Part shown: in pieces, positions 29,901 through 54,009 of the stretch
Layout: each line of letters starts with the position of its first letter
How positions within the stretch are numbered: position 1 is the first letter of the stretch
Assembly (NCBI GenBank): GCA_002070055.1
Contig: MWCM01000005.1
Coordinates: 2,015-66,014 of the forward strand
DNA: 64,000 nt
Reading direction: 5' to 3'
Source of the DNA: a bacterium ADurb.Bin212
Lineage (GTDB): Bacteria; Patescibacteriota; UBA1384; XYA2-FULL-43-10
Position numbers and translations under genes: made by a program
The notes under the pieces: model-generated
The model's input: the letters and a program-made list of their open reading frames with translations, nothing else
Told to the model about the DNA's origin: nothing
Database searches by the model: none

Positions 29901-32900
29901 TGTCGGCCCCTCTGGCATCATTAATTTAGATGGTCTTGGCTTTCCTGCCAGGCAAGGTCCGGGACGCATATACCTGACAAACGACGAGAGAGGTTCCGGG
30001 CATGGCGGACAAGGTGGCGGGAGCCCCTATGGCGGCACAGCTTATGGCGACTTCTCGGACCCTGTTTCACTGGGCAGTGGAAACTACCGTGTAGCCGGAG
30101 GAGGCGCTTTAAAACTTAACGCCAGCCAGTCAATTATATTAGATGGTTCGCTAAGCGCCAACGGCTTAAGTAATTATGGCGGAAGCGCCGGAGGATCTTT
30201 TAATATAAGCGGAACCTATATTGCTGGAGTGGGTAGTGTTAAGGTTAATGGCGGAGCCGGAGACTATGGGACCGGCGGTGGCGGAAGAATTAAATTATCC
30301 TCAAACACTAATAATTTTATCGGCACATTACAGGCCAAAGCAGGAAATCAATCCGCCGGTATCAACGGAGGCGCAGGCACGATATTTAAAAAACTAGCTT
30401 CACAGACTTACGGCGATTTAATTATCGATAACGGCGACGCCACTCAGAACGGGCGCAACCAAACCTCAGCCTATTTAAAAGGCTCAAGTGGCGATACGGG
30501 CAGTTACCAATTTGATTCAATTACATTTAATAACTACGGCAAACTCGAGATTATCTCCGGACAAAGTTTAGCACTTAACAGTGGCACTATTACTGGTACC
30601 AAAACAGCGGGAGTAATAAATGCCGGAACAGTAAGCGTGCCGGACAACTGGTCTCTCAACTACTTCTATTCACATAAAAATGGCACATTATCCGGATGGA
30701 CTCAAACAAATTTAACAATAACCTCTGCCGGTAAATTAACTCATTATATCAATGATTCTACAGACACCTATGGCCTTAATCTAACACTAGATAGTCTAAC
30801 CGTAGATAGTGGAGGTGAGATTGACGTTAGTGAAGTAGGATATGCTTCGCAACAAGGCACAGGCAAAGGTAAGGTTATTACTGGTGGTTATGGCGATGGT
30901 GGTGGTTACGGAGGAGAGGGAGGACGAAACGACACCGATATGACTAGAAGTAACCCTTATGGAGATTATTCTAATCCAACTGAACTTGGTAGTGGCGGCG
31001 CTTACTCAGGTGGCGGCGGCAAAGCTTTATTAACCATAACTGGGACAGCCACAATTAATGGCAGTCTGCTCGCAAACGGACAATCAGCAAACTCCGGAGG
31101 GTCGGGTGGAAGTATTAATTTATCGGCTGCCACAATCACCGGCGGCGGCACAATCACGGCCAATGGTGGTTCGGGTGGCACAATTTACTCCGGTGGCGGC
31201 GGTGGTGGCAGGATACGTCTTGCCTCTACGGCCAACACTTTTAGCGGTACTCTAACCGCCCGAGGAGGCACAGGCTATAGTAGCAATTATTCAGGTGGGC
31301 CAGGAACTATCTATAAAAAACTTTCCAGCCAAAGCTATGGCGATCTAATTATTGATGATAACGGCAATACTCACCACAATAGATATTTTATGGGGGCATA
31401 CTTAAAAGATAAAGCTGACAGCGGTAGCTATCAATTTGATTCAATACAATTCTCTAATTATGGAAAACTTGAAGTTTTAGGAAGTCAGATAATTAATGCA
31501 ACTGCAACAACTATTACCGGCGACAAAAATTCCGGTTTTTCAAACGCTGGCACAATTAATCTACCCTCTACATGGAACCTCTCCTATTTATATATGCACA
31601 AAGGGGGCACAATAAGTGATCTTGCTAATAAATCGATTGTAGTGACATCAACCGGCTTCCTGACACATTATTTTAACAACTCCGAAGAGACATATTCAAT
31701 AAATTGGACATTAAATTCAGTTGAGGTGCAGACTAACGGCGAAATTAATACTACAAACAATGGTTATGCCGCCAATAATGGCCTCGGGCCCGGAGCATCA
31801 GCTGGCACGCCTTCTGGCTCTGGTGGTGGTGCATACGGCGGAAACGGTGCTGCTGGCACAGTTGGTGCAGGCGGAACTGCCTACGGCTCGGTAACAAACC
31901 CGACCAATCTTGGTTCAGGTGGCGGTGGCGGAGCTAATGCCGGTGGCGGTGCAATTATTCTAAATGTTAATACTCTGAATTTGTCCGGAACACTTGCCGC
32001 AAACGGAGCTGATAGTGCCGCCAATGATTACGCAGGAGGTGGTGCAGGGGGCAGCATAAATATCACTGCTAATACAATCAGTGGTTCTTCTGGCTCAATT
32101 ACTGCTAACGGCGGCTACAGTAAATGGAGAGGTGGCGGTGGCGGTGGCGGTAGAATTGCCATAAATTACACCACTGACTCATACACAGGCGGTCTATCGT
32201 CTCTAGCAATCTCCGCCAAAGGCGGCATGAACGGAGTGACTTGGGGTGAAGATGGTACACGCAAAGGTGCCGCCGGAACTATATATATCAAAAAAACCTC
32301 CGATGCTTACGGCAGTCTGAAGATTGATAATGCTGTAGCCACCACTACTGTAGCTAGGACCCCTTTGACTCTTCCATTGGCTTATAGCAATGTTACAATT
32401 TCTAATTACGGCAAAGCTACCATATCGACCAACGCTGATACGGCTCAGAACACTTTGGCCGTGAACGGAAATTTAACCGTGGGTGCAAACTCCGAGCTGA
32501 TACTCAACTCCGATAACGATGGCACTCCTGCCGCTGGGGCTTGGCCAATTATTACTGTGACTGGTGATGCTAATATTTCCGGTTCTGTTACCTCTAACGC
32601 TACCGGCTATATACATGATCTGGGCAGTGGCAAGGGCAACATAAGCGGTTCTTATGGTTCTGGTGCAGGGTATGGCGGCAGTGGTGGCAATTCCGCCAAC
32701 GGAGCAATTGGTGGGGTAACTTATGGCACAGAACGTGACAATAACTATATTGGAAGCGGAGGCGGTGGGGCAAATGGTGGGGCAGGTGGCGGCATGATAA
32801 AAATGTCGGTATCCGGATCTCTTGATCTAAGCAACACCGGAACTATTGCAAGCAACGGTGGAGCTGGGGGCACAGACGGTGGCGGTGGTTCTGGAGGTTC

Positions 32901-35900
32901 AATTCAGATCGTTTGCACTACTCTATCCGGCTCGGCTGGTAGCACCATCTCAAGCAATGGCGGAGCCGGAGGAGCAAATGGTGGCGGAGGCGGTGGTGGT
33001 AGAATAACAATTTATCCATCCAATGATAGTTATCTTGGCACTCTAACGGCAACCGGCGGTTCCGCCGGTTCTGGTGGAGCCACTGCTGGAACAAACGGCA
33101 CAGCAATTATTCAACACACACCTGGCTCCCTGACTATGAACTCACCTAACGACGCCGCTACTGATCAAATACAAAAAACAGTATTTCGCTTTAACTCGAC
33201 AGACATCGACAACGACTGGATACAATACAAATTACAGATTGCCGCAGATATAAACTTCAGCGATGGCGTTTCCACCTTTGACCAAACTCTCTCTCAAAAC
33301 CCAAGTAGTGGAGGTAGAAGCGCAATATTCTCCAATCAAGACAGAACCACGGGCAATGTCGCCGGAAGTGACGGATACTCTTCGGGCAGAGAAGCAATTC
33401 TCACACTGCAAACAAATCTGACTCAGGCAAGAACATACTATTGGAGATTCTACGCTTATGATCCAGAAGGAGTCGACTCTTTTGACGGCAGCCAGCACTG
33501 GTCACCAGCTTCAAGCATCAGATCGTTTACTGTTGCAAGCATCGACCATATTTCGTTCTCGACACCCCAACAAGAGAGCGTTGTTACTTTCTGTTCTGCA
33601 GTTATGACTGTAAATTTAAGAGACTCGAGTAATAACAATATCTACTTAACAGAGGACGACGGCCCCACAGCACTACAACTTAGCGCTGATTCAGCTTCAG
33701 GCTCATTTTATTCCGATTCAGATTGTGAGACGGCTATACCTAGCGATCAGGTTATAGTTGCAGTTTCTGGTAACTCTGCCAGTTTTTTCTACAAGGACAA
33801 CCAACCTTCGCCGGTAAACAATTATTTTACAATCACGGTTGCTGAAACACCATCTGAAGGATTAACAGATGCTACTCAACAGATAAGAATTAAGCCAGGC
33901 GATTTAGGGTCTTTTGAAATATCAGGGGCTCCGGTATCAATAGTTGCCGGTGCGGCTTTCTCTTCTCCAACAAACGACATTACCGTAACTGTAAAAGATA
34001 TTTTTGGGAACACAAAGAACGATTGGACCGGGCAAATCTGGTTCTATTCCTCCGATTCGCAAGCTGATTTAGTCTATGACGACTCAAATAAATATTCATT
34101 CACTTCCGGCGAAGGTCTGGATAACGGCACACACACTTTTGATGGCGGAAACTTCGTCTTAAAAACCAAAGGTAATCAATCTTTAGTAGTCCACAACTCA
34201 AGTGGTGGTGAATACGACGAAGTGGTAGCTATAACCGTTAACCCTGCGGCTATAGACCACTTCTCTCTCAGCGACTACCCACGCACAGCCAGCGGAAAAT
34301 TCGCCATGAGTTCTTTTTCTTGGGACACACCAGGATATTCAGACGCTCCATACGACCCGATTGTCACAGCATACGACCTTTACGGAAACATAAAAGATGA
34401 TTATGTTGGAGAAACATGGTTTGAACTCTACAAATCCACCGATGCGGCCGGTAATCCTTTGGATTCTAGCGCAAATTATGCCTTTGATTACGATTATACT
34501 AATCACTATACTTTTACCTCGGGTGACGGATTAGATAATGGCACTCACACTTTTGATGGCTCCGGCTTTACAGTAGTAACCGCAGCCAACGATCTACGCC
34601 TCAGAGTAAAAACTTCGGCGAATGGAGGTGTTTACACCGACTTTACGATAACAGTGAAGCCTCAATCGATTGACCACTTCCTTATTAGCTCAACTCCAAC
34701 CCTCTCCAGAAATGGAATAGATTGGGACAAAGAAGTAGACGAGGAGTTCATCGAAGACATCACCGTCACTGCATACGATACCTTTGGCAATGTAAAAACA
34801 GATTATTATTATAACGACGCAACAAAAGCCGGCATGATCTACTTCTATTCAAGCGACCCGCGCGCCGTACTTCCCTATTCCAAAACAGTCAGCACAGATT
34901 CCTCTGCCTGTTTAGCCTTCCCGCAAGCTGCCAACGGTTCTTATACTTTAGATACAACCAACACCCCCTTAAACTACTTTAAATTCTTAACAGGGGGGCC
35001 ACAAACGATCTCAGTTTCAGAATGTATTGATCCTACCTCTGCATACGCCACTGGAACTGATAATAAATATGACCCTAGGCTCGAAGGAGTAAATCCGCTC
35101 AAAGTTATGGCCGCAACGGGCCAAATCCCCGCCACAGGTGATGATCCAAATAAAATATTTGTAGCTAATCATGTGCCCGGCTCAACCCACACAGCAGTCG
35201 ACCATTCTGACGATTCGAACGATCTTATCGAAGCTGGACCAGGCCATGAGCAGGCAACTCTTTCTTGGACTAATCCCTTTGATATCCCAAGCGACCCCGC
35301 TCTTGACGCTCAGGCATATATTTATCGTTGCACAACAAACTGTGAAAATATCGCAAACTTTAGTAGGATTATTACAGATCCGGCCACAATTAGCGTAACC
35401 GCTGGAGAAGTTTCTGAATACACCGATACAGGGCTAACAAATGGAACCGAATATTTTTACAAGCTCTCTTATGCTTATAAACGACAGGATGATAGTTATA
35501 TCGAGAGCAACAAATCAATCACAGTCAGCACAACTCCGGCAGACATTGCACCAAGAAATATCTCTGCCTCACAACTTGATATAAGTGACAGCACAAACCC
35601 GGGCAAGGTAAGAGTGGACTATCAACTACGTTGGGATTCGACTGTTTCCTTGGCATACTATAACCCTGCCACCAACTCATGGCATAATGCATCACCTAGC
35701 GCCATGAGCGGAGATGTGGGCCCCGGCATCACTGGAGATGAAGCACTAATATCTCACACCGCTTATTTGGACCCTAACATTGATTTCGACGGTCAATATT
35801 TAACCGATACCTTTAAGGTTAGGGTTAAGGTAACAGTCAACTCAGCCAGCACTTATGCCGATTCAGCGACTCTTGATCTTGATTCAAAAAATCCGGCTGG

Positions 35901-37689
35901 CGCCACCCTGGTTGTGGATGCGACAGACGGCAACAGCGCCGATCTTACCTTTTCTGCCTCGGATAATAATGAGCTATCCATGAAAGTCGCTGGAGATCCC
36001 GACTTTACTGGAGTAGACTGGCAAGCGTTTACCGAAACAATCGAAGATTTTGGAATCAACGGTATGAACTCTGTCTATGTAATTTATAGAGATTCTTTTA
36101 ATAACACCACAACAGTAGAACAAGAAATTTTTAGCGCGCCACAAAACGTAAGCATTAAGGACGGTTCAAGCGCGGCGTCACAGACATATCGGCTACTTAT
36201 TACTTGGGATGATCTAATACCAATGCCGGAACATTACAATGTTTTTCGTTCAATAGATGGCGAAAATTACTCTCACTACGACACCACTGTTAAAAACGCC
36301 GCAATTGATATTAATCTTGATCCGGATACGCTTTACTCATATAAAATTCAAGCAGAAGATGGGGCCGGCAATAAATCAGCTCTATCGGATGCCGTTTCGT
36401 CACGTCCGGGAACCGCCCCCGACGTAACCGCAGACCCGGCAGTTGAGTTGTTTGGCTGGAAACAAGATGTGGGAGTAAGAGCAAGGATTACTTGGGATAC
36501 CGACCAGAACTCCGATTCTTTTGTCGCTTTTGCCAAAGAGCCGATTAAAAGCGGTTCCGTATTAGATACCGAGTCAGGCAACGAAGATGCAGTCTCTGTA
36601 GTTGGATCCCCCGATATGGTAACATCGCACGAGATAAATCTCTCCAATCTGGAGCCATCGACTAAATATTATTTTAAGGTATTATCTAAAAACGAAATTC
36701 AGATCACCGGCTACTCAGATGTGTTTGAGTTTACTACCCCGGAAAGAGTTTTGCTGTTAATTTCTGGCATGAAAATTACCGACATTACCAATAATTCAGC
36801 ATTTATCTCTTGGACCACATCAAAAATATCAACCAGCTTGGTTGAATATGGGCAAACCAGCCAGTATGGTGAAACAATTGAGGACCTGAGCCAGAACACC
36901 GAGCATAAATTCAAGCTGGAAAATCTGATATCAGGAGACTACCATCTTCGGGTCAGCGCCAGAGATGTAGATGGCAATTTAACTATCTCTGACGAATATA
37001 TCTTCAATATTCCACCAACCCCTACTATTACAGATATAGCCATCACTGACATTAGCGACAACACTGCAAAAGTTTCTTGGAGCACAAATGTGTCATGTAA
37101 TTCAAATGTCGATATTGAGAGCGATAGTGGCAACGGCTCACAAGGCAATGCTAGTTATACTACAAGCCATTCTGTAAACCTTGTGGGGTTAAGCGCCAAA
37201 ACCAACTATACCTTGAAGATAAGATCAGTTGACACATACGGTAATACTGCTATCTCGGAGAGCAGACAGATTACTACCACCGCAGACTTGTTTGCCCCAA
37301 AAATTATTAACCCTAAATCAGAGATAACTTCAACCGGATCAGGTGAAAACATTAAATATCAGTTGATTGTATCGTGGGAAACAGATGAGCCGTCTACCAG
37401 CAAAGTTGAGTTCGGCCAGGGTGTTGGTAATGCCTACGAATCATCCAGCAAAGAGGAGTTGTCCTTAAATATGACTCATACAATAATTGTTACTGATCTA
37501 AAACCAAACTCTGTTTATCACTTTAGAATAAAAAGTGGCGATAAAGCCAATAATGTCGCATACTCTGATGATTACACTATTACCACCCCACCCAAAGAAA
37601 AAGACATTATTAGCATAATAATAAACGCTATTGTCGGGCCTATGAACGATATCTACCAGGGAGTAATTAATAAGTTATTCAAAAGGTAA
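26977..37689 (+). CDS. giant (3570 aa) multidomain surface protein: BNR/sialidase-like N-terminus, LamG-like lectin domains, three Gly-rich beta-helix-like super-repeats, four C-terminal FN3-like domains
   Basis: A single uninterrupted 10.7-kb ORF. Asp-box/BNR repeats ([18 protein letters not shown]). LamG-like blocks ([13 protein letters not shown]...LELWAYP...[17 protein letters not shown]...[10 protein letters not shown]...LKLYMDGK). Periodic [11 protein letters not shown]...TANGGSGG...[10 protein letters not shown] units. C-terminal FN3-like modules ([17 protein letters not shown]..., [16 protein letters not shown]..., [19 protein letters not shown]...). Confidence 0.8.
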
Positions 37690-37690
37690 T

Positions 37691-38446
37691 ATGGCCAAAA
37701 CCGTTGTAATCAGTGCCAAAAATTTAATCAAAACTTTTCAGGCCGGCGGAAGCGACCTGACTGTTGTAAACGATGTTTCTTTTGAAATCGAATCTGGTGA
37801 TTTTGTGATGTTCTTCGGTCCTTCCGGTTGTGGTAAATCCACTTTATTAAATATAATCTGTGGCTTAGAGAAACCGACAAGCGGAAAAATTAAGATCAGA
37901 GATGAATCTCTTGGCGATTTAAGGGATGATAAACTAGCCTTTTACCGACGCACAAAAATTGGCATTGTCTTTCAACAGTTTAACCTGTTGAAAACCATGA
38001 CTAACCTGAAAAACGTAGCACTACCCCTAATCTCAAATGGAGAGCCGGCCGGTAAAGCCTTTCATCGTGCAGCACAGATATTAAAAATGGTAGGGCTGGA
38101 GAAACACCTCAAAAAAAGACCTACCGAACTTTCGGGCGGGCAGCAGCAACGTGTCGCAATTGCAAGAGCCTTGGCGGCGAACCCATGGATTATTGTTGCA
38201 GATGAGCCAACCGGCAATCTGGACTCAAAATCAGCAGATGAGGTGGTAGAGATTCTGAACATATTGAATCAGAGATCAAAAAGAACGGTAATTATGGTTA
38301 CCCATAATCCGGAGTATTTAAAATTTGCTAACAAGATTTTTCACCTCAAAGACGGGCAGATTATAAAAAGTGAACATAATCACAATCAACCCAAGATAAA
38401 AGACATCGAGGGATTTAAAATCAGTGAGCATAACATAGAAAGTTAA
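37691..38446 (+). CDS. ABC transporter ATP-binding protein (MacB/LolD-like)
   Basis: Walker [10 protein letters not shown], signature [15 protein letters not shown], Walker [13 protein letters not shown]. The start codon is 2 nt after the giant-gene stop. Confidence 0.9.
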
Positions 38447-38454
38447 TAATTGGT

Positions 38455-39639
38455 ATGAAATTTTCACAAATCATCGCTACCACTTGGGAAAACCTTATGG
38501 GCAATAAGATGCGCACCCTACTAACGGTCAGCGGCATCTCAATTGGAATCGCCACAATAATATTCCTGGTTTCTTTGGGCTATGGTCTGCAGGAGTTTTC
38601 TGTTAAAAGAGTTAGCTCACTAGACGCGCTCTCAACACTGGATGTTTCTCAAGGCAAAACTGCAAGTTTTAAGCTCGATAAATCCAGTATCGAAAATATC
38701 TCCAAGATTAAGTATGTAGAAAAAGTCAGTCCAATTATCTCGCTTGGCGGAAAAGCGAGCTACAACGACAAAAAAACCGACCTTGTAACCACAGCAGTTT
38801 ATGATAATTTTTTTAACTACGAAGACGTAAAAATTGCCGAAGGCGGAGTATTTAGTAACTCAGAAGAGAAGATTCTTATTTCTAGCGCTCTTGCTAAGAC
38901 CTTGGGGGCAGATAATAAGGCATTAATCGGTCAACAGCTAGATTTGTCGGTTTTATTACCAAAGGCCGATAAAGATGCGCCACCCCTCAAACTTAAACTA
39001 ACCATATGTGGGGTAGTCCAAGACAACAGTTCAACTTTCGCCTACATCTCCCAAAATTTAATTGAAAATGAGCTGGAAGACGGCACTATTTATACTGCCC
39101 TTAAAGTTAAGCTGCAATCTCAAGACAATCTAAATCAGGTCAAAAATGAGATAGAAGCAAGCGGCTTTTCGGTCAGCTCTGTTGCTGATACCGTATCTCA
39201 AATTAGCCAGGTCTTCGCAATAGTAAGAATTGTCTTAGCTTTGTTCGGTGGTTTTGCTTTGTTGGTGGCCGCTATTGGCATGTTTAACACCATGACTGTT
39301 GCCCTGCTTGAAAGGACAAGAGATATCGGTATCATGAAATCAATTGGAGTAAACAATAAAGATGTATATTTAATGTTCTTATCTGAGGCAGTAATAATAT
39401 CTATACTGGGTGGAATGCTAGGAGTTGGACTTGGCGCGCTAATCTCCGCATTGATTAATGTTATTATTACCGGACTCGCCAACTTAGTGGGAGCAGAACC
39501 GGTAACACTCTTTTATACTCCGCTCTGGTTTTCGATGTCTGTTTTTGCTTTCTCGGTGCTAGTAGGAGCTTCCACTGGTTTTTATCCCGCCAGAAGGGCC
39601 TCGAAGCTAAACCCGCTTGATGCCTTAAGATACGAGTAA
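38455..39639 (+). CDS. ABC transporter permease, FtsX/MacB-like (large periplasmic loop plus C-terminal FtsX domain)
   Basis: TM1, then a ~220-aa extracytoplasmic domain, then 3 TM helices of an FtsX-type domain. Paired with the upstream ATPase. Confidence 0.85.
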   Translation: MKFSQIIATTWENLMGNKMRTLLTVSGISIGIATIIFLVSLGYGLQEFSVKRVSSLDALSTLDVSQGKTASFKLDKSSIENISKIKYVEKVSPIISLGGKASYNDKKTDLVTTAVYDNFFNYEDVKIAEGGVFSNSEEKILISSALAKTLGADNKALIGQQLDLSVLLPKADKDAPPLKLKLTICGVVQDNSSTFAYISQNLIENELEDGTIYTALKVKLQSQDNLNQVKNEIEASGFSVSSVADTVSQISQVFAIVRIVLALFGGFALLVAAIGMFNTMTVALLERTRDIGIMKSIGVNNKDVYLMFLSEAVIISILGGMLGVGLGALISALINVIITGLANLVGAEPVTLFYTPLWFSMSVFAFSVLVGASTGFYPARRASKLNPLDALRYE

Positions 39640-41902: not shown

Positions 41903-42709
41903 CTAAACGAACAAGAGGGCGACCAACACCAAAGCCATCACTACATCTACTCTGCTCTTGATCCGGCTGGCCTCTTTGGCCGACATACTACCACGCACAG
42001 CTAGCTGAACCACAGTCGGCACCCAAAGCAGGGCCACTAACCTCACCCAACCCAAGGCTTGCAGAAGAACCAACCATGTGGCAAGGCAAGCGACCGCCAG
42101 ACTCAGTGCCGCCACCCTTTTGGCCCCCGTTTCACCCACAGCCTGGATCCATGTCCATTTGTGGCCAATGTCGTGGGGGTGGTCTTCGAAGTCCTTTAGG
42201 ATCTCGCGGCCGTGGATCACAGATGCTACCGCCACAAACAGCAACAGCACTCCAGAATCTTCATTACCTTGACCCAGAGTTACCAAGAGCACCGTTAGAC
42301 TGGAAGCCCCGGCAACCAGTAGGTTCGGCAGTACCGGAACAGTTAACAGCTCAGAGTAGAGAAGACCGGTGACGATGCAAAGGAATATCAGAGCCCCTGA
42401 TTGCCAGCCCAGATCCAACCAGACTGCCATCGCCAACAAGCCGGAGAGTAGCCACAGAGTTGTGGCATACAGCCGGTATTGCCGGGGGTTTTGGGCAGCA
42501 TGGCGCTTGCCCATCCTTGCATCGTGCTGCCGATCACGCAGGTCATTCTGGACCATGGTGGCACACAGCACTACAAACACCGCCACAGCCGGCAAGACAG
42601 AGGCTGAGAGATCGCCGCCGGCATATTTTACGCTAACAATCACGAGCAGCACGGCAAAGAGGTTAATCCTCCACCGTGTCGCCTCGATATAAGGCCGGAT
42701 ACTCTTCAC
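41903..42709 (-). CDS. UbiA-family membrane prenyltransferase (high-GC island)
   Basis: Polytopic. First Asp-rich motif NDLRDRQHDAR (NDxxDxxxD) and second DFEDHPHD. GTG start preceded by GAGGTGA. Visibly GC-rich. Confidence 0.65.
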   Translation of the reverse strand: MKSIRPYIEATRWRINLFAVLLVIVSVKYAGGDLSASVLPAVAVFVVLCATMVQNDLRDRQHDARMGKRHAAQNPRQYRLYATTLWLLSGLLAMAVWLDLGWQSGALIFLCIVTGLLYSELLTVPVLPNLLVAGASSLTVLLVTLGQGNEDSGVLLLFVAVASVIHGREILKDFEDHPHDIGHKWTWIQAVGETGAKRVAALSLAVACLATWLVLLQALGWVRLVALLWVPTVVQLAVRGSMSAKEASRIKSRVDVVMALVLVALLFV

Positions 42710-42825: not shown

Positions 42826-42855
42826 AATAAATGAGGCCTTTCGGCCTCACTTATT
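42826..42855 (-). terminator. intrinsic terminator (TGAGGCC-TTTC-GGCCTCA) downstream of the surface-protein gene; possibly bidirectional
   Basis: 7-bp GC stem with a tetraloop, flanked by AATAAA and TTATT. Confidence 0.5.
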
Positions 42856-42875: not shown

Positions 42876-45074
42876 TTACAATACTAACTTCTTGTTTCTG
42901 GTCCTAAAGTAATATAAACCAACCAACAATGAAGCCAATGCAACAAAAGCGGCTATTGCATAAACATAAATATTATCGTAAGTGTTGGGATTGCTCGGAG
43001 TATCGCTATAGGCTATAGCATAGGTAGAATAAGAGTCAGTATCGAAGGACAATATACCTGTTGTCTCGTTATAGGAGCTATCTAATTTGGTTACAGTGCC
43101 ATCGTGATCTCTGAGCACAGAATAATTAGAGTGGCCTTTTAAACTGTCTGCCAACTGCAAGTTAACTGACATATCTTGGCCCAGCTCAGTGATATTAGTC
43201 TTCCATGCTTCGTCAGATGATCCTTTTAAAACTACTTCATTTAGAGTTAAATCGACCAAGCCTCCGATAGTGGACCCACTGGCAAGCGGTTGAAAAACAC
43301 TATTATCTCCGTTATTGCTATCCGTTACGGAAAATTCGGCATTGCCATTAATTTCTCCCTCCGGCATGGCTATTGAGGCGCCGGAAACCTTACCACTAAC
43401 AACTGAGATAATATCACTGGATCGCTCAAAGATTGCGCTTAGATGCAGATGGTTGTTTGGCATTGTAAAGGTATACGATGCTTTGCCCTCATCCGGCACA
43501 GTTTGATTACCGTTTAAACCGCCTGAAACATATTGATAACCGTAATCTGGTAACAGCTCAATTGTAACAGTGCTTCCCGCTTCCAAAGAGTAATCCGTAT
43601 AACCACCAGAGGTAAATCTGTAACCATTTGCCGCAATCACTCTCACCGTTCCGTTTGTAACAATTGAATCGTCTGCCCCTGGAATGTTCCAGCCTAACTG
43701 ATACAAAGTTCCGGCCGTTGACTCTAATAGGAAATTTCCCTCTGTTGATGTCATGCGATATTTGTTAGTAGCGTCGGTTCCTTCCTCGCATGTGACAGTG
43801 GTCGGCAGTGGATTTTCCTCCTCTGTGCCAGTCATGTCGGTCCATGGCCAATGTGATGCTTCTGGTGTAAAATCTCCCAAGGAAGACGTATAAGACAAAT
43901 CTACTGTTCCGCCGCCGGATACTCGAACCGAGTTAACGTTAGCAGTTGCAATATCACTTGATGCCACTGTTAAAGTCTTGCCGGCACCAGATTCCACTAT
44001 CATTCCATCACCTTCTGCCGGAGTTTCATCATAATACTGAAGAGCAGTACCAGTAGTGTAAATCGTTAAGTCCCCCATATGAACTTCCACTTCGCTTGCC
44101 ATAATACCCTTTGAACTTGGTGTTTCGGCTGATCCGATGGTAAAAGCTCTATCGTAAGTGTTAATCATACCCTGTGTAAATATACCGCCTGCCAGATTTA
44201 TGTCACCCGCAACATCACTCTCACCACCGGATATATTTACCCTACCATTCATGTTTATCGAAAATCCGTCTTCATTTTCAGCGATATTCGCATCCCCAGT
44301 AATAATTAACATCCCATCTCCAATACCGGTAATATATCCAAGAGTAATGCCCTGATCAATATTTAATCCGTAACTACCCATAAAACCCGGTTCAATGCTC
44401 CAACCCTCACCACTTGCCGAAGTTACTGGAGGCTCAGCGGTTTCATCAATTACCAAGGTTCCGTCTATTGATAATTGCAACGGGTCACCAGGGGGAGGGC
44501 CTTCTGGGTCTCCGGGACCACCGGGACCGGGGGCACCATCATAGTTATAAACATTATCCCCAACTATAAAGGTGTCATCGGTATTAACATTAGTTCCACT
44601 CAAAATGCTAACCGTTATAATATCATTTAAGCTTGTTTCGTCACCAATAGTAAGTCTTTTGCCTTCACCAATTCTTATGGCTGTGTTGTCGGCGCTGAAA
44701 GCACTAATAGAAAGAGAAGATTCATCACCTTTAATGGTCACATTACCCGCTACTGATCTAATTGCAGGATCAGGGCTAGTGCTGACGACTGTATTCGTCC
44801 CAACAAGGTCGATAATCAGATCATCGTCGGCAGAGATATTTGCAATATCCGCGTTATTTAAAGTTAAAGTCATTGTTGGCACATCAAAGGACACACCAGC
44901 TATGCCATGGTCACTATTATATCCTCCGGCTTGGGTGTAAATTGAAGTTCCGTTGACAGTAATAGAGGTCGAGTCCAAGGCAGACACCATTCTAAATGAT
45001 ACCGCCCCCAAAGCCAAAAACGCGACAAAAGTTACAAGCGTGATTAGCTTGTTAGAAAAAAACTTTCTCATCAT
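42876..45074 (-). CDS. secreted surface protein with C-terminal hydrophobic anchor and basic tail (candidate sortase substrate)
   Basis: Signal peptide MMRKFFSNKLITLVTFVAFLALGAVSF. Pro/Gly stretch GAPGPGGPGDPEGPPPGDP. C-terminus IYVYAIAAFVALASLLVGLYYF followed by RTRNKKLVL. GGAGG RBS. Confidence 0.55.
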   Translation of the reverse strand: MMRKFFSNKLITLVTFVAFLALGAVSFRMVSALDSTSITVNGTSIYTQAGGYNSDHGIAGVSFDVPTMTLTLNNADIANISADDDLIIDLVGTNTVVSTSPDPAIRSVAGNVTIKGDESSLSISAFSADNTAIRIGEGKRLTIGDETSLNDIITVSILSGTNVNTDDTFIVGDNVYNYDGAPGPGGPGDPEGPPPGDPLQLSIDGTLVIDETAEPPVTSASGEGWSIEPGFMGSYGLNIDQGITLGYITGIGDGMLIITGDANIAENEDGFSINMNGRVNISGGESDVAGDINLAGGIFTQGMINTYDRAFTIGSAETPSSKGIMASEVEVHMGDLTIYTTGTALQYYDETPAEGDGMIVESGAGKTLTVASSDIATANVNSVRVSGGGTVDLSYTSSLGDFTPEASHWPWTDMTGTEEENPLPTTVTCEEGTDATNKYRMTSTEGNFLLESTAGTLYQLGWNIPGADDSIVTNGTVRVIAANGYRFTSGGYTDYSLEAGSTVTIELLPDYGYQYVSGGLNGNQTVPDEGKASYTFTMPNNHLHLSAIFERSSDIISVVSGKVSGASIAMPEGEINGNAEFSVTDSNNGDNSVFQPLASGSTIGGLVDLTLNEVVLKGSSDEAWKTNITELGQDMSVNLQLADSLKGHSNYSVLRDHDGTVTKLDSSYNETTGILSFDTDSYSTYAIAYSDTPSNPNTYDNIYVYAIAAFVALASLLVGLYYFRTRNKKLVL

Positions 45075-45134
45075 AACCCTCCTACACTAAAATATGATAA
45101 AATTATTTATATATTGAGGACACAAAAAACTATT

Positions 45135-45971
45135 ATGCCAGTTCAAAGACATTATAAACCCAGGAAAAGAATAAAGCAAAGAAAGCGATTTTTTTGGGTT
45201 TTCTTCTTTATATTTATCATCATATTTATATACTCTGTGTTCCGCGTCACAGTCTGGATTATCGATTCAATGAATATTTCTAAATTACTTACTTCAATCA
45301 ACCAAAACACGCAAATTAGCGAAGTAGACGGTCGACAGGGACAACAATTCAATCCGCCGCAAGATAAGTTCGACCCTTATTGGGATTATATTAACACTAA
45401 TTTGCTTGATGTTAATTTGGACGAACTAACCAAGATTAATCAACAAACAAAGGGGTGGGTTCAGATAAAGGGAACGAATATAAATTATCCCTTTGTTCAG
45501 GCAGAGGATAACAATTATTACCTTAACCACTCTTTTAGCAAAAAGTATAATCAAGCCGGCTGGATATTTTTAGATTATAGAAATAACATTGATAGCTTGG
45601 GAGAAAATACAATATTGTACGGACATGGCAGAGTCGGCAACACCATGTTTGGCACTCTTAAAAATATCGTAAAAAGTAGCTGGTACTCAAACAAAGAAAA
45701 TCACTTGATCAGAGTTTCCAGCCATAAACACAACTCTCTGTGGCAAGTATTTAGTGTTTATCAGATAGATACAACCAATGATTATCTTCAAACATCCTTT
45801 TCTAAGGAAAAAGATTTCTCCGAATTTCTCGACATGATTCGCTCCAGATCCGAACTTAATTTTAACACCAGCACAAATTACAAAGACAAGATATTAACTC
45901 TATCAACCTGTTTGAATAGTTCAAAAAAAACAGTCATGCACGCCAAGCTAATAAATATTCAATATAAGTAA
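45135..45971 (+). CDS. sortase-family transpeptidase (membrane-anchored)
   Basis: N-terminal TM FFWVFFFIFIIIFIYSVF. Catalytic-Cys motif ILTLSTC resembling the sortase TLxTC, and an upstream His in ILYGHGRVGN. A TTG at 45114 is an alternative start. Confidence 0.6.
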   Translation: MPVQRHYKPRKRIKQRKRFFWVFFFIFIIIFIYSVFRVTVWIIDSMNISKLLTSINQNTQISEVDGRQGQQFNPPQDKFDPYWDYINTNLLDVNLDELTKINQQTKGWVQIKGTNINYPFVQAEDNNYYLNHSFSKKYNQAGWIFLDYRNNIDSLGENTILYGHGRVGNTMFGTLKNIVKSSWYSNKENHLIRVSSHKHNSLWQVFSVYQIDTTNDYLQTSFSKEKDFSEFLDMIRSRSELNFNTSTNYKDKILTLSTCLNSSKKTVMHAKLINIQYK

Positions 45972-45993: not shown

Positions 45994-46025
45994 AGCGCCC
46001 CCTATGCGTTGGGGGCGCTTTTGTT
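45994..46025 (+). terminator. intrinsic terminator after the sortase gene
   Basis: AGCGCCCCC-TATGCGTT-GGGGGCGCT hairpin followed by TTTGTT. Confidence 0.55.
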
Positions 46026-46319
46026 CTTTGGGATATCATCCCCTTTCTTCGGCCGCTTGCACCACGGCCAGTGATACTGCCCGCAATACGGGCAGGGTTG
46101 CTTGCGCCGGTTGGGGTAACCTACCGGACGCGGGGGCACTACGGGTCCAACGGGCCCGATCGGCATAGTATCCAACCCCTTTCATTTTCAACGGTTCTGA
46201 ATTGGCAACTTTTTATAACATTTTTTGACGATATTCGCAACATTTTTTGCTTTACAAATTTTGCAAAAAGTTATAGTATTACTTATCGTCGCAACATCGA
46301 CTCCAAGCGAGGTAAAGCC

Positions 46320-47036
46320 ATGCCCGAATTGACTATCGCCACATTCCTGACACTGCCGTTCACGATGGGCACAAGAGTGGCTATCTCCCAAGGGTGGCTA
46401 TACTCCATGGACGAGGTAGTCATTCACCCTGGCATTACCCACCACAACGGGGTGGACTTCGCCTGCCCATGGGGTACACGCGTACTGGTGCCGGCCGACG
46501 GTGTGGCAGTAGCCAGCTACCACACCTACTACATGGGTGATTTCCATGGTCGTCTGATCGGCTATGGGCTAGGGTTGTTTGTGCAGATCTGGCACCCCGA
46601 GGCCCAACTCTTCACCTCTTACGCACACCTATCCAAGGCGTCTAAGGAGATTCCCTACATCTCACCGGTCCGCCAGGGCGACAGTTGGCAACCGGCGGCA
46701 GCCATCTATGTGCCGCTGGAGGTGTTTCTGGCGCAAGGTGTTGAGGTGAAACGGGGTGACTATCTTGGCGAAGTTGGCCGCACAGGCCTACTGCTCCACG
46801 ACGAGACACCCAGCAACCCCCCAGCAACCAAGGCGACCGACCCCACTTGGGATCCTGCAGGTGATCACTTGCACTGGGAGTGCTACAGACGCACACTCGA
46901 CGGCCTCCGCAAGGACCCTGAGGCGCGCTGCGACCCCTTCGGTGTCTATGGCCTCCGCGAGGCCTACAACATCAACAAAGCTAGCGGTCTGTTGCTGGCC
47001 GGCCCCAAGGGCAGACCCCTATGGGCCAACGAGTGA
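46320..47036 (+). CDS. M23-family (LytM-like) metallopeptidase (high-GC island)
   Basis: HPGITHHNGVDFACPWGTRVLVPADGVAVASY (HxxxD ... GT.V.A...G.V) and GDHLHWE (HxH). RBS GAGGT before the ATG at 46320. The longer upstream ORF extension is non-coding GC-rich sequence. Confidence 0.7.
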   Translation: MPELTIATFLTLPFTMGTRVAISQGWLYSMDEVVIHPGITHHNGVDFACPWGTRVLVPADGVAVASYHTYYMGDFHGRLIGYGLGLFVQIWHPEAQLFTSYAHLSKASKEIPYISPVRQGDSWQPAAAIYVPLEVFLAQGVEVKRGDYLGEVGRTGLLLHDETPSNPPATKATDPTWDPAGDHLHWECYRRTLDGLRKDPEARCDPFGVYGLREAYNINKASGLLLAGPKGRPLWANE

Positions 47037-48836: not shown

Positions 48837-50693
48837 GTGGCTGAGTTGTTTGAGTTTCTTGCAGTTGCGCTGTCGTACATATGGGGGTCGCTCCCCTTTG
48901 GGTACACGGTGGGGAAGCTCGCCGTAGGGAAGGGCTTCGACATCAGAAACCATGGCTCCGAAAGCATCGGTTTCACCAATGTCTGGCGAGTACTGGGCAT
49001 GAAGGTAGCAATACCAGTGCTCATCCTCGACCTGCTCAAGGGATACCTGCCTGTGGCGATCGCCATGCACACGCTTGGTGTTACAGCCGCCTGGCTCTGT
49101 CTGATCGCGGTAATGATCGGGCATGCCAAGTCGCTCTACTTCCGACTCACCGAAGGTCATTTCAGCGGCGGTAAGTCGGCGGCTTCTGCGATGGGTGGCA
49201 TCGTTGCTCTTCAACCAGTGCTCGCCGGATGGGTGTTCCTGTTCTTCCTGGCAGTACTGCTTGTGAGCAGAACAATGTCGGTATCTTCGATGCTTGCGAG
49301 TTTCTGTGCAGTCTGGCTATCCTACCACTACGAACTGGGACACGGATGGCACACTCTGTTCTGGGTTGTTGCAGTGCTGATTATGTACACGCACCGCCGC
49401 AACCTAGGGCGCTTGGCTCATGGCACCGAGAACAAGATGTTCGAGTGGTCGGACATGCGGTGGCCATGGCAGAAAAAGCCAACGACTAAAGAGCAACCCG
49501 AGATCCTGGCAGGGTTCGTGATTCACGCCATGGACTGGAGAGATCTCCTGCAATCCATCTTCTCATGGTGGATAGGCTTTCTCGGGATGTGGGAACGCAC
49601 GAGACCCATCGCAACGTGGATATTGGCTCACGTACCGGTCATCGAGAACGCCGAGATCAGAAACATCCGACTCAAAGATGGCCGAAGGGTTAGAGTCCTG
49701 GTGTTGGCGATTCCTTGGGTGTCCAGCATGATCAAGCAGGTCCGGTATGCCAACGAGATTGACGAAAGAGAGGAAAAGATCCCGTCGGGATCGGAAGGAG
49801 CCGAAGCCAGAGATGAGGTGAAGAGAGCCAAACAAGCTCCGGAGTATAGGAGGTCGAAGTGGTTCCGTGATAGGCTCTGGCAAAGGCTTCGAAGCACAGC
49901 GGTGCAGACCAGACGTAGGGGTTGTTCGGTGTTAGGTCTTGGCGCTCTACTTTCGACCGAGTTCAACGGAGGTGCAGACCTACAGAAGTGGTGCAACGCG
50001 AGAGGCCTTGACCTGACCGTAGACAACGGAGCGGCCTACACAGCCGTTTCCACGGTACAGGCGGTGATTAAAGAGACACCCATGCCCCTCGACCAAGCTA
50101 AGGTCAAGGTAGTAGGTGCCAGCGGCTTCATCGGTCGCATTACCGCCAAGTACATGGAGAAACTAGCCGCTCAAGTGACCGTAATAGGCAGGGACGAGGC
50201 CAAGTTAACCGGGTTCAGTCAATCCACGGCAATCTCAACCGCGCTGGAAGACGCTTACGACGGCGACGTTGTAGTGCTTCTTACCAGCGCGCCCGGACAG
50301 GTGGTGAACCTCGAGAACTGCACCAAGTTCAAGCCTGGCGCTACCTTCATGGACGGCGCTAGGCCTGTTGACTTCGACGAGCAAATACTCAAAGAACACC
50401 CCGAACTCAACTTCAAGCTGGTGCGCTGTGGGGTCATCAAGTTTCCACAAGAAGAAGGCAGAGACGTTCTGTGTGGTGTGGATTTCCACTTCGATGGCTA
50501 CTACCCAGCTTGCGTCGCCCAGTGTGTAATGGTGGCGGCCGGAGGAGAAGAGGGAAGATCGAACGCCACCAACGGAGCGTCAATCAGGCCAGCCAAGTAT
50601 GAGTACTTCGCAAATAGTGCCGAGGCATGTGGCTTGGAGGTCATAACCTCGCGAAGATCGGAGGGAGATGTATTCGAGGGCAATTACAACTAG
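48837..50693 (+). CDS. plsY: glycerol-3-phosphate acyltransferase PlsY fused to a ~400-aa C-terminal extension with Rossmann-like NAD(P)-binding motif (high-GC island)
   Basis: N-terminal ~200 aa: LSYIWGSLPFGYTVGKLAVGKGFDIRNHGSESIGFTNVWRVLG, 5 TM helices, typical PlsY. The same frame continues without a stop for 618 aa and includes VKVVGASGFIGRITAKYM...VTVIGRD. GTG start. Visibly GC-rich. Confidence 0.6.
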   Translation: MAELFEFLAVALSYIWGSLPFGYTVGKLAVGKGFDIRNHGSESIGFTNVWRVLGMKVAIPVLILDLLKGYLPVAIAMHTLGVTAAWLCLIAVMIGHAKSLYFRLTEGHFSGGKSAASAMGGIVALQPVLAGWVFLFFLAVLLVSRTMSVSSMLASFCAVWLSYHYELGHGWHTLFWVVAVLIMYTHRRNLGRLAHGTENKMFEWSDMRWPWQKKPTTKEQPEILAGFVIHAMDWRDLLQSIFSWWIGFLGMWERTRPIATWILAHVPVIENAEIRNIRLKDGRRVRVLVLAIPWVSSMIKQVRYANEIDEREEKIPSGSEGAEARDEVKRAKQAPEYRRSKWFRDRLWQRLRSTAVQTRRRGCSVLGLGALLSTEFNGGADLQKWCNARGLDLTVDNGAAYTAVSTVQAVIKETPMPLDQAKVKVVGASGFIGRITAKYMEKLAAQVTVIGRDEAKLTGFSQSTAISTALEDAYDGDVVVLLTSAPGQVVNLENCTKFKPGATFMDGARPVDFDEQILKEHPELNFKLVRCGVIKFPQEEGRDVLCGVDFHFDGYYPACVAQCVMVAAGGEEGRSNATNGASIRPAKYEYFANSAEACGLEVITSRRSEGDVFEGNYN

Positions 50694-51875: not shown

Positions 51876-51904
51876 TTGACTTAAATTGTATTTTGTGCTA
51901 TAAT
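51876..51904 (+). promoter_or_regulatory. near-consensus sigma70 promoter TTGACT-N17-TATAAT upstream of the muramidase-amidase gene
   Basis: TTGACT 51876-51881, a 17-nt spacer, TATAAT 51899-51904. AAGGAGG RBS at 51985-51991, 8 nt before the ATG at 52000. Confidence 0.5.
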
Positions 51905-51999
51905 TGCTTAATTCTCTAAAGCAGAGATATATTTTTTGTTGCATAAAAATACTCCCTGCTTCAGCAGGACAAGCATCACAATCGAAGGAGGCGAGGCGC

Positions 52000-54009
52000 A
52001 TGAAAGCGCTCTCCTACGCCGTATTTGTTGTTCGGTTGTTGTGGTACATGGTGTGGGGAGGGGCTTACGCCATATCCTCCTTCATCATTGTGCCATTCTT
52101 CATCGCGCTGGCACGGCTACTAGTTGCCGTGCTAAAGCAGTGCTGGGGCAACCTGGCCTGCTTCTACAAGAGGTGGGTCAAGAGGAGTGGCCTGGGCCGT
52201 GTGCTTCTTTGGCACGGTGCCGCCTTCGTCGTAATCATGGTTGTCGTCGGCTCATGGGGAGACGCACCGCGCACGCCCCAAGCCGGAAGCAACCAGGCAA
52301 AGGAGCAGGTGGCACCCGCTACCACTCCCGAGCCCATGGACAAAAAGCCCGAGGAGAAGCCTGCGCCTGCAGAGGTAAAGGATACTTCTCCGAAGGGGGC
52401 GCTAGGCAAGGGCGCATGGATCATCGAGCTGGACGAGGCCGAACTTGGCCAAGTCAAACAGATCAAAGATCCGGAGGCTCGCCAGAGTGCGCAGGTAAAG
52501 GCGGTTGTGGCTAAGGCCAAGAAAAACGGCCTGGGGCATATCATCGTCAAGACTGCCCACTTCGGTAAGCCGTATGGCAGCTGCCCGCCCGAGATGGCGC
52601 GTGAACTTGGCGAAGCCTGCCGCAAGGCTGGCATCCGCTGCTTCGGCTACGGCCGAATTCTAGCGGACGATGCTGATGCCGAAGCGGAGATGGCCAAGCG
52701 AGCCATGCGCCCTGCCAGAGATGGCGGGCTCGGGCTCGATGGCTACGTCTTTGACGCCGAAGGAGAGGTTAAGGGCAAAGATAAGAATCTGCGCCTAATC
52801 CTCGCTGATGTCAAAAGCTGGCTTAAGGCTGCGGCGCCTAATAAGCGCCTTGGCTACTCCAGCTTCGGCATCCCCTCCTACCACAGAGGACTCGCTTGGG
52901 ACACACTCAACGAGTTCTGTCACTACGCCATGCCTCAGTTGTATTGGCGCAGTTGGCAGAGTACTCAGAAGTGGTCCTTGGATGAGTCCCTTGGCAAGTC
53001 GCTCGCCTCTTGGCGCGACTGCCCTCTGCCGGTGGTGCCCACCGTGCAGAGCTACTCAGGAAAGCTTGGCGGCGTAGCCCGTGTCGAACCAGCCAAGATG
53101 AAGAAGTTCCTGGCCGGCCTCGACACAAGCTCCGGCTTCAACTCCTTCCGCTGGGACTATACGGGCCCAGAGCAGTGGCAGGTAATCCGCGACTTTAAGT
53201 GCGGGCAACCTAGTTACAAGCTCAAAGTTCCGGCGGAAGGCAAGCAGACTAGTGCCGCCTCGACCACCATGCCCAAGATGCCGCTTGAGCCAACTGGCAA
53301 AGGCGACCTCACCGGCATGGTTGTGGTCATCGACCCCGGCCACGGTGGCACCGACCCCGGCATGGGTTGGAAGGTGGAATGGAAGAAGAGCGGCAAGGCC
53401 CACAAACTCAAAGCGTGGGAAGCCGCCGTCACCTACCCCACCTCCTGGCAACTGGCCGCCACCCTACGATCCCGAGGTGCTTACGTCTACCTCACCGCCT
53501 GGGACCCGATCATGGCCCAGGTGCCGACGGGCGCTCGGGATCTACCGTTGCCGAGGAAAGCAACCTTCACGGACGACTGCAAGAAAGTCCGCGGAGGCAT
53601 GTTTTCGCAGCGCTTTGCCACAGTTTCGACTGCGGTTAAGCGCTTCGACGCCTCCGGAAAGAAACTGGGCTGGCGCCATGTTGCCTTCGTCAGCATCCAT
53701 GTGGACTCGCTCGGTGGAAATGTGAGCGGTGCCCACGCTGTTTGCTGGCCGGGAGATGTTGACCTTGGCGAACCGATCGCAGCTGAACTTGCAAAGATCG
53801 GCGTTGCCACACCCGGCAGACCACTCTGGGAGAAGACGAAGAGGATGGGCATCATTGCCCCAAGTAACGTTCCCCTTCGTCTCCGACTGGTGGTCGAGAT
53901 GGGAGTCCCGGCCAACGATGGCGGTGACTCATGGCGACTGCGATCACAAAAGCATCGACAGAAAATCATCGATGCCATCGCCAACGGCCTCGCCGCCGTT
54001 AACGACTAG
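52000..54009 (+). CDS. membrane-anchored bifunctional peptidoglycan hydrolase: GH25-like muramidase domain plus C-terminal N-acetylmuramoyl-L-alanine amidase (Amidase_3) (high-GC island)
   Basis: N-terminal TM/signal anchor, then a Pro/Ala/Lys linker. GH25-like blocks LGHIIVKTAHFGKPYG, GIRCFGYG, LDGYVFDAEGE and MPQLYWRSWQ, compared with the GH25 pattern FVIIKATEG...G.YHF...LWLD.E...PLWIA.Y. Amidase_3 signature MVVVIDPGHGGTDPGM. Confidence 0.6.
   Translation: MKALSYAVFVVRLLWYMVWGGAYAISSFIIVPFFIALARLLVAVLKQCWGNLACFYKRWVKRSGLGRVLLWHGAAFVVIMVVVGSWGDAPRTPQAGSNQAKEQVAPATTPEPMDKKPEEKPAPAEVKDTSPKGALGKGAWIIELDEAELGQVKQIKDPEARQSAQVKAVVAKAKKNGLGHIIVKTAHFGKPYGSCPPEMARELGEACRKAGIRCFGYGRILADDADAEAEMAKRAMRPARDGGLGLDGYVFDAEGEVKGKDKNLRLILADVKSWLKAAAPNKRLGYSSFGIPSYHRGLAWDTLNEFCHYAMPQLYWRSWQSTQKWSLDESLGKSLASWRDCPLPVVPTVQSYSGKLGGVARVEPAKMKKFLAGLDTSSGFNSFRWDYTGPEQWQVIRDFKCGQPSYKLKVPAEGKQTSAASTTMPKMPLEPTGKGDLTGMVVVIDPGHGGTDPGMGWKVEWKKSGKAHKLKAWEAAVTYPTSWQLAATLRSRGAYVYLTAWDPIMAQVPTGARDLPLPRKATFTDDCKKVRGGMFSQRFATVSTAVKRFDASGKKLGWRHVAFVSIHVDSLGGNVSGAHAVCWPGDVDLGEPIAAELAKIGVATPGRPLWEKTKRMGIIAPSNVPLRLRLVVEMGVPANDGGDSWRLRSQKHRQKIIDAIANGLAAVND

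Follow-up and report, generated by a model that had tools for sequence, protein, structure and literature searches.

A class B sortase and a putative dedicated surface-protein substrate encoded divergently in a bacterium of the candidate phyla radiation

The closest described relatives of the locus reported here are the SrtB/IsdC systems of Staphylococcus aureus (signal NPQTN) and Bacillus anthracis (NPKTG-DE), in which a class B sortase is gene-linked to a single dedicated substrate whose N-P-x-T core is followed by a transmembrane segment and a basic tail. Cleavage falls at NPQT|N in S. aureus and at NPKT|G in B. anthracis (PMC8225981). In the B. anthracis enzyme, the asparagine at P4 of the signal is held by a beta6-beta7 tyrosine, the serine two residues before the catalytic cysteine and the catalytic arginine, the threonine preceding the cysteine has been proposed to stabilise the reaction intermediate, and an aspartate at P2' is needed for full activity (PMC11987632). 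SrtB of Clostridioides difficile (CD2718), a housekeeping enzyme with several substrates bearing (S/P)PxTG and NVQTG motifs, anchors adhesin-like proteins and has no link to heme uptake (PMC8225981). Here we report that a 64-kb stretch of contig MWCM01000005.1 (the window, meaning the whole stretch of DNA analysed), from a bacterium of the candidate phyla radiation (CPR/Patescibacteria), very probably carries a dedicated class B sortase and substrate pair, encoded by a divergently transcribed two-gene cassette.

An earlier, sequence-only reading of this DNA had placed two divergent open reading frames (ORFs) here and taken them for a 732-aa secreted protein with the architecture of a cell wall sorting signal and, on the opposite strand, a transmembrane-anchored sortase with a TLSTC cysteine motif; the candidate recognition motif of the secreted protein had seemed reminiscent of class B. 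Both ORFs are present as described, and the evidence below bears out each of these assignments. The features of the cassette, in window positions and with residue numbers (aa) of the respective protein, are:

42876..45074, minus strand: substrate gene, encoding a 732-aa, presumably secreted, adhesin-like surface protein with a class-B-type cell wall sorting signal
45135..45971, plus strand: class B sortase gene, encoding 278 aa, with an alternative TTG start at 45114
45075..45134: divergent intergenic region, 60 bp, AT-rich, with a CATATT/TATCAT -10-like box
44979..45074, minus strand: Sec-type signal peptide, aa 1-32 (MMRKFFSNKLITLVTFVAFLALGAVSFRMVSA|LD), recognised by a basic n-region and a hydrophobic helix (8-27) in the model
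43665..44972, minus strand: two beta-solenoid (parallel beta-helix-like) regions, aa 35-180 and 200-470, predicted from the model
44478-44534, minus strand: Pro/Gly-rich linker between the two solenoids, aa 181-199
43419..43601, minus strand: InlB B-repeat-like domain, aa 492-552 (Pfam PF18998 Flg_new_2, E 2.6e-7, 30.9 bits against a cutoff of 23.6)
43005..43412, minus strand: C-terminal beta-sandwich stalk domain(s), aa 555-690, predicted from model strands 555-690
42972..42992, minus strand: sorting motif N695-P-N-T698-Y699-D700-N701 (NPNTYDN), translation checked; predicted scissile bond T698|Y699
minus strand: motif-bearing tail peptide of the substrate, DTPSNPNTYDNIY
42879..42971, minus strand: membrane-spanning hydrophobic segment, aa 702-723 (IYVYAIAAFVALASLLVGLYYF), and basic tail RTRNKKLVL, aa 724-732; helix 702-726 in the model
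45189..45242, plus strand: N-terminal membrane anchor of the sortase, FFWVFFFIFIIIFIYSVF, with a basic stretch before it; within model helix 11-58
45624..45626, plus strand: catalytic His164 (LYGHGR)
45897..45911, plus strand: TLSTC, with catalytic Cys259 and the preceding Thr258 and Ser257
45927..45929, plus strand: Lys265, at the position of the sortase catalytic Arg
42832..42849: likely terminator, a GC-rich hairpin TGAGGCC-GAAA-GGCCTCA followed by TTTATTG on the minus strand, 26 nt past the substrate stop (consensus match only)
45994..46019: likely bidirectional terminator, a 9-bp GC-rich hairpin followed by TTTTGTT, 22 nt past the sortase stop (consensus match only)

The plus-strand protein matches Pfam PF04203 (Sortase, peptidase C60) with 44 bits (cutoff 26.6; E 2.2e-11) and the NCBIfam equivalog TIGR03064 (sortase_srtB) with 178.5 bits (cutoff 153.75), the latter across residues 30-271. 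Its best solved relatives by sequence are the SrtB enzymes of S. aureus (E 1e-38; 37% identity), B. anthracis (E 1e-34; 33% identity), C. difficile, Listeria monocytogenes and Clostridium perfringens. Class B sortases carry an extra helix in the beta6-beta7 loop, and an AlphaFold2 model of the window enzyme (predicted local distance difference test, pLDDT, 89.2; predicted template modelling score, pTM, 0.84) has, besides a long N-terminal membrane helix (residues 11-58) and short helices at 82-85 and 96-101, a helix at 225-237 that lies between strands 199-212 and 253-259. When this model was compared with the PDB by Foldseek, the 19 best matches were all class B (template modelling score, TM(target), 0.70-0.88; E 1e-19 to 1e-13), with SrtB of S. 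aureus, B. anthracis, C. perfringens and C. difficile at the top (for C. difficile, TM(target) 0.75-0.80 and 36-40% identity), and structures of classes A, E and F began only at E 4e-7. The N-terminal helices, the beta6-beta7 helix and an SrtB as best structural match are thus all found, and by TIGR03064, SrtB sequence matches and model fold the enzyme is a class B sortase.

The residues by which SrtB acts on its signal are conserved as well: Tyr217 of beta6-beta7, His164, Ser257, Thr258 and Cys259, which correspond to the P4-Asn-binding Tyr, the catalytic His, the P4-Asn-binding Ser, the Thr before the Cys and the catalytic Cys of SrtB, are all invariant in an alignment of 57 homologues. His164 aligns to the histidine of TILYGHH in S. 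aureus SrtB, which we take to be His130.

The substrate has the three-part C-terminus of a cell wall sorting signal (the NPNTYDN motif, 22 hydrophobic residues and the basic tail RTRNKKLVL) together with an N-terminal signal peptide, for which cleavage at VSA|LD is likely, the family consensus at this spot being V-x-A-L-D. We found about 60 homologues of the protein (40-77% identical, nearly all of 700-790 aa). Among 66 distinct homologue C-termini, collected with a pattern that itself required N, P/L and T, the motif positions are occupied by N (66), P (65), a variable residue, T (66), Y or F (49 and 11), D (63), G or N (39 and 23) and I, V or L (65); the six positions before the motif vary across the same tails. 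Every full-length homologue fits the motif pattern, the sole misses being two C-terminally truncated sequences. As read from this alignment, the family motif is N-P-x-T-[YF]-D-[GN]-[IVL]; of the two candidates originally put forward, NPNTY was right and SNPNT wrong.

By analogy with class B sortases, cleavage would fall between Thr698 and Tyr699. The aspartate kept in 63/66 tails would then occupy P2', the position that matters in B. anthracis SrtB (PMC11987632), and P1' would be aromatic (Tyr or Phe), which is the unusual part of the motif, SrtB/IsdC having Asn or Gly there. The beta7-beta8 loop of the window sortase is 4 residues shorter than that of S. aureus SrtB, and this shortening may make room for the aromatic residue. 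The AlphaFold2 model of the substrate (pLDDT 86) shows residues 694-701 as disordered (pLDDT <50), with helix 702-726 directly after them, so that the motif is predicted to lie in a disordered linker before the transmembrane helix, where a sortase would need it.

The predicted fold of the remainder supports an adhesin or a glycan-binding head and separates this protein from IsdC. Whereas IsdC belongs to heme uptake, the 732-aa substrate is beta-helical and adhesin-like, neither a NEAT domain nor an iron-uptake operon was found, and the only Pfam match of the substrate is the InlB B-repeat; full-length searches against NCBIfam returned 0 families. Among sortase-anchored beta-helix adhesins, the binding region of the Lactobacillus reuteri serine-rich repeat protein (5nxk) shares only 12% identity with the substrate, and that protein differs in its LPXTG signal, its class A sortase and its SecA2/Y2 export. 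Within stalk residues 602-690 (window 43005-43271), Glu613 and Lys617 are invariant and Asp680 is nearly so, a set that resembles, by analogy and as speculation, the intramolecular isopeptide bonds of Gram-positive surface-protein stalks.

The pairing of the two genes recurs across the CPR. A scan of species-representative genomes yielded 29 related loci, all in metagenome-assembled genomes (MAGs) of CPR bacteria labelled Saccharibacteria, Saccharimonas or Dojkabacteria. A class B sortase divergently adjoins the substrate in all loci with at least about 900 bp of upstream DNA (22/22), and the seven loci without a sortase are cut on that side. The other neighbours change from locus to locus (NUDIX, MFS, beta-lactamase, GNAT and serine recombinase genes, with a large serine recombinase adjoining the substrate in one case); no conserved wider operon was found across these loci, and no type IV secretion system genes flank the CPR pairs examined. 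The only ORFs with such a C-terminal signal in the 29 loci belong to this substrate family, and a scan of the 64-kb window found no sorting-signal-like tail besides that of the substrate. In a neighbour-joining tree of 145 sortases, computed without bootstrap and therefore only indicative, the window enzyme, 20 CPR-paired sortases and 19 top database matches form a group of 40 that holds no sequence of Bacillota context.

The signal itself reaches far beyond this family. Other proteins sharing it, a search for which had been suggested from the sequence alone, comprise the roughly 60 orthologues and at least 627 further cluster representatives, the latter found at E <= 1e-3 when a 40-position profile covering only the tag, hydrophobic segment and tail was run against 1.84 billion cluster representatives. 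Of the 150 matches listed, 147 lie outside the query family; all of these are at the extreme C-terminus of proteins of 40-874 aa, and their consensus is N-P-[NKQ]-T-[YF]-D-[GN]-I, with the aspartate in 147/147. The last strand of the stalk (SF-TD-YSTYAIAY) also precedes the signal in unrelated proteins (for example P0270; 45/147 of these matches). A cluster look-up of the other signal-bearing proteins gave no names. Two of them were traced to contigs, both Bacillota-like; one carries SirA and L21-Prp-L27, and the other is the conjugative element described below.

Bacillota are also where the nearest non-CPR sortases occur. A clade with the signature 'TLSTCYN..(K/R)VVMHAKLIK' is 47-57% identical to the window sortase and has the same short loop and the same alternation of Lys and Arg at the catalytic-Arg position, and the tagged proteins of this clade carry the same signal as the CPR substrate, NP[NKQ]T[YF]DGI. 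Three further close sortase homologues lie on contigs of 25-28% GC: one is clearly from Bacillota, with the sortase beside sigma-E-type sporulation genes (SpoIIGA-like Peptidase_U4, SpoIID), and on another, from a MAG named 'Bacilli bacterium', the sortase neighbour ends in NPQTSDN, a transmembrane segment and the basic tail KKIKQG. The second of the two traced contigs is a Bacillota-type conjugative element (L034:7054-10205, on a 42.8-kb JGI 3300031555 contig, with PrgI, a VirB4-like AAA_10 ATPase and CHAP) in which a 276-aa sortase, 50% identical to that of the window, divergently adjoins a 734-aa tagged protein ending in ENPNTLDS, a transmembrane segment and KKRNKIRA. This layout is identical to that of the CPR cassette, whereas the passenger proteins have only the last strand and the signal in common and are otherwise unrelated, and the CPR sortases form their own clade. 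The substrate-sortase pair is thus specific to CPR. That Bacillota have the same enzyme clade and the same type of signal suggests lateral transfer, in one direction or the other. The proposal of a lineage-specific pair accordingly stands for the substrate family and the sortase subclade and fails for the signal type and the wider sortase clade, both of which many Bacillota share. The Bacillota clade is itself undescribed, as no paper naming the motif was found in the literature searched.

The active site departs from SrtB at one position. By HMMER alignment, Lys265 takes the place of the arginine of TKRIVVVAK in S. aureus SrtB, presumably Arg233, and of R243 in B. anthracis SrtB (local sequence TLSTC-LNSS-KK-TVMHAKL); C. 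difficile SrtB has Arg217 here (6kyd R217A entry), and differs further from the window system in its several substrates and other motif, as against one locally paired substrate with NPxT[YF]D[GN]. Among the 120 closest homologues, this column is occupied by K in 94 sequences and by R in 25; the corresponding counts for CPR orthologues that accompany the same substrate family are 11 K and 9 R, and a strain whose cassette is 96% identical carries Arg. Because Lys and Arg alternate in this way, Lys265 is not a single-sequence error, and what is conserved is a basic residue rather than arginine as such. The prevalence of Lys among the closest homologues and the free swapping of the two residues argue for function. 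Lys tends to occur with D-G and Arg with D-N when the column is compared with the substrate P1'/P3' residue, but numbers are small and confounded by phylogeny, and we claim no correlation. As a separate observation, Arg166 (window 45630-45632), two residues after the catalytic His in YGHGR/YAHGR, is invariant in the 57 aligned clade members, whereas S. aureus SrtB has YGHHVG there; judged from sequence, Arg166 might compensate for Lys265.

Several points nevertheless weigh against a working sortase-substrate pair. The canonical catalytic Arg at the start of beta8, a mark of the sortase superfamily, is absent; Arg-to-Lys changes strongly impair S. aureus SrtA, and sortase activity is therefore not to be taken for granted here. 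A literature search for Arg-to-Lys sortase mutants returned nothing. Among curated NCBIfam signal models, isolated tails matched only TIGR01167 (LPXTG_anchor), at 13.4-14.4 bits and below its cutoff of 15.9, and no NCBIfam model of SrtB targets was reported for them even at E <= 10. We infer the cleavage as well as its bond and its acceptor, and the window covers 64 kb of the genome, so that a second sortase or further substrates may be encoded elsewhere.

It is on the missing arginine, the unmatched SrtB-signal models and the 64-kb view that a different account could be built, in which the C-terminal helix is a permanent tail anchor, NPxTYD a structural or linker motif, and the sortase an enzyme for proteins encoded elsewhere. 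We consider this very improbable, since the sortase stays adjacent in 22/22 loci despite changing neighbourhoods, the SrtB NP-binding residues are conserved, and the motif is far more conserved than the disordered linker around it. In addition, hundreds of unrelated proteins terminate in this combination of motif, transmembrane segment and basic tail, a pattern characteristic of processing signals and not of fold elements. A plain tail anchor had also been named as the outcome that would undo the sequence-only reading; the motif's conservation, its place in a disordered linker just before the helix and its co-occurrence with a sortase argue against that outcome. About as improbable is that the sortase mainly sheds the protein or passes it to an acceptor other than peptidoglycan, for instance water, a lipid or an amine of the host-cell envelope. 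Such a role lacks positive evidence, and the window encodes peptidoglycan-remodelling proteins (an RpfB-like G5/DPBB protein, M23 and Amidase_3), which make a wall acceptor plausible; it would, on the other hand, suit an epibiotic mode of life in CPR bacteria, and Lys265 with the short beta7-beta8 loop could alter the second half-reaction. The class B sortases tested in vitro in one study are slow (PMC11987632), which leans the same way, but characterised class B enzymes anchor proteins to the wall (PMC8225981).

A third account, of similarly low probability, has the sortase polymerise its substrate as Spy0129 and SrtG do, joining monomers by a conserved lysine to form a fibre, either in place of wall anchoring or ahead of it. 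The substrate does have an invariant lysine in its C-terminal domain (Lys617), and the structural matches include pilus-type class B sortases (3psq, 4y4q), but these are the weakest of the SrtB matches, at 25-30% identity. Each locus holds one substrate gene, with no minor pilins and no second sortase, a beta-helix head on a stalk resembles a monomeric adhesin rather than a pilin, and the related sortases of Bacillota each adjoin one small protein that bears this tag. A lysine motif of the YPKN type is canonical in pilins; of the marks of a sortase-assembled pilus, multiple substrate genes were not found in any locus, and the pilin motif was not specifically searched for in the substrate.

On the reading we prefer, a dedicated class B sortase and its substrate, the 732-aa protein would be exported by Sec, as its signal peptide suggests, and its C-terminal hydrophobic segment and basic tail would hold it in the membrane. 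The membrane-anchored sortase would then recognise, in the flexible linker that lies immediately outside the membrane, the motif N-P-x-T-[Y/F]-D-[G/N], a step suggested by the conservation of the motif, the pairing of the genes and the conserved NP-binding residues. By homology, Cys259 and His164 would cleave at Thr698|Tyr699, and the protein would be transferred to an amine of a peptidoglycan precursor or of the wall, so that an adhesin-like head of parallel beta-helix fold would be exposed on its beta-sandwich stalk. The enzyme belongs to a large class B subclade, also present in low-GC Bacillota, with a short beta7-beta8 loop and Lys or Arg at the 'catalytic Arg' position, and the signals cognate to this subclade have an aromatic P1' and an invariant P2' Asp. 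Besides P1', the catalytic-Arg site, the loop and the substrate type, it is the host, a CPR bacterium rather than one of the Bacillota, that sets the window system apart from SrtB/IsdC.

The pair itself is an ordinary class B sortase and substrate; the signal, the Lys-type active site and the CPR adhesin candidate are its noteworthy parts. CPR host attachment is largely unknown beyond type IV pili, and the substrate names a concrete, conserved candidate for a wall-anchored adhesin in CPR/Patescibacteria. The widespread signal NP[NKQ]T[YF]D[GN]I, with its at least 627 protein clusters and matching sortase clade, should allow better prediction of surface proteomes in gut Bacillota and CPR, and the natural interchange of Lys and Arg at an 'invariant' position bears on the debated role of the arginine, substrate positioning versus oxyanion stabilisation. 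The CPR papers found in our literature search mention sortases only in passing, as present. A preprint assigns the CPR type IV secretion system to the conjugation systems of monoderms and reports that it detected no adhesins in CPR (10.1101/2025.01.22.634366). A bolder and doubtful extension would make the cassette a host-contact (or mating-pair) adhesin module of a CPR clade, acquired once, sortase included, from a mobile element of Bacillota, and the enzyme a distinct class B subclass (His-Cys-Lys/Arg triad, short beta7-beta8 loop) that accepts a bulky aromatic P1' and reads NPxT|[YF]D[GN]I. If true, it would fill the adhesin gap noted for CPR type IV secretion systems (10.1101/2025.01.22.634366) and offer an orthogonal specificity for sortase-mediated ligation.

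As to the layout of the cassette, the sortase most likely starts at ATG 45135, because its three closest homologues are 278 aa long and an independent gene call on the 96%-identical contig picks this ATG; the in-frame TTG at 45114 is a possible alternative. A GGAGG lies 4 nt 5' of the substrate ATG, within the intergenic spacer, and the hairpin at 45994-46019 likely closes the cassette. In most of the 29 related loci (L001-L029) the spacer measures 41-82 bp and contains a recurring TAnnAnCATAAtTTAA-like box about 25-35 nt 5' of the start codon of the substrate gene; this box is probably a conserved promoter's -10 region. The spacer is very short, and the sortase promoter would have to overlap the box.

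The 96%-identical cassette (L035; Logan SRR6476074 contig, 3536 bp) matches the window, at 96.2% identity, only across window positions 42981-45955; its flanks and the 3' ends of both of its genes are unrelated to those of the window. Its substrate ends in NPNTSDG with a different transmembrane segment and tail, and its sortase in SKRIVIHAKLIKNSPK, with Arg for Lys. As identity stops within both genes, the recombination breakpoints lie inside both and have swapped the sorting signal and the beta8 strand together.

The substrate is 100% identical to a hypothetical protein of 'bacterium ADurb.Bin212', which NCBI leaves unclassified and on which a literature search returned nothing. The GroEL encoded in the window likewise matches that of ADurb.Bin212 at 100%, and it shares 75-76% identity with proteins carrying the names 'Patescibacteria group bacterium' and 'Berkelbacteria'. 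The neighbours of the cassette are UbiA, M23, a low-molecular-weight protein tyrosine phosphatase (LMW-PTP) and YchF, and the rest of the window is of housekeeping type (recG, uvrD, metG, mnmA, folD, ychF, gpsA, rpsF, ssb, efp, groEL, pyrG). A giant ORF of 3570 aa (26977-37689, plus strand), which has no C-terminal sorting signal, lies directly 5' of genes for an ABC ATPase and an FtsX-like permease (37691-39639). Five single genes, each between low-GC housekeeping genes, stand out by a GC content of 0.55-0.62 (0.64-0.77 at third codon positions, GC3), against 0.38-0.41 for the genome:

9975-11288, plus strand: CN_hydrolase (Lnt-like)
41903-42709, minus strand: UbiA prenyltransferase, with AT-rich promoter-like boxes upstream
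46071-47036, plus strand: M23 peptidase
48837-50693, plus strand: fusion of PlsY and a Rossmann-type domain
51904-54009, plus strand: 701-aa Amidase_3

All five are cell-envelope genes, and two of them flank the sortase cassette. They are absent beside the 96%-identical L035 cassette, and no such islands occur in the related loci. The pattern looks as if envelope functions had been acquired one gene at a time from a donor of high GC content; a chimeric assembly seems unlikely. In the PlsY fusion, the glycerol-3-phosphate acyltransferase (residues 12-193) is followed by some 400 C-terminal aa that weakly match Shikimate_DH and 2-Hacid_dh_C, an architecture unusual for PlsY.

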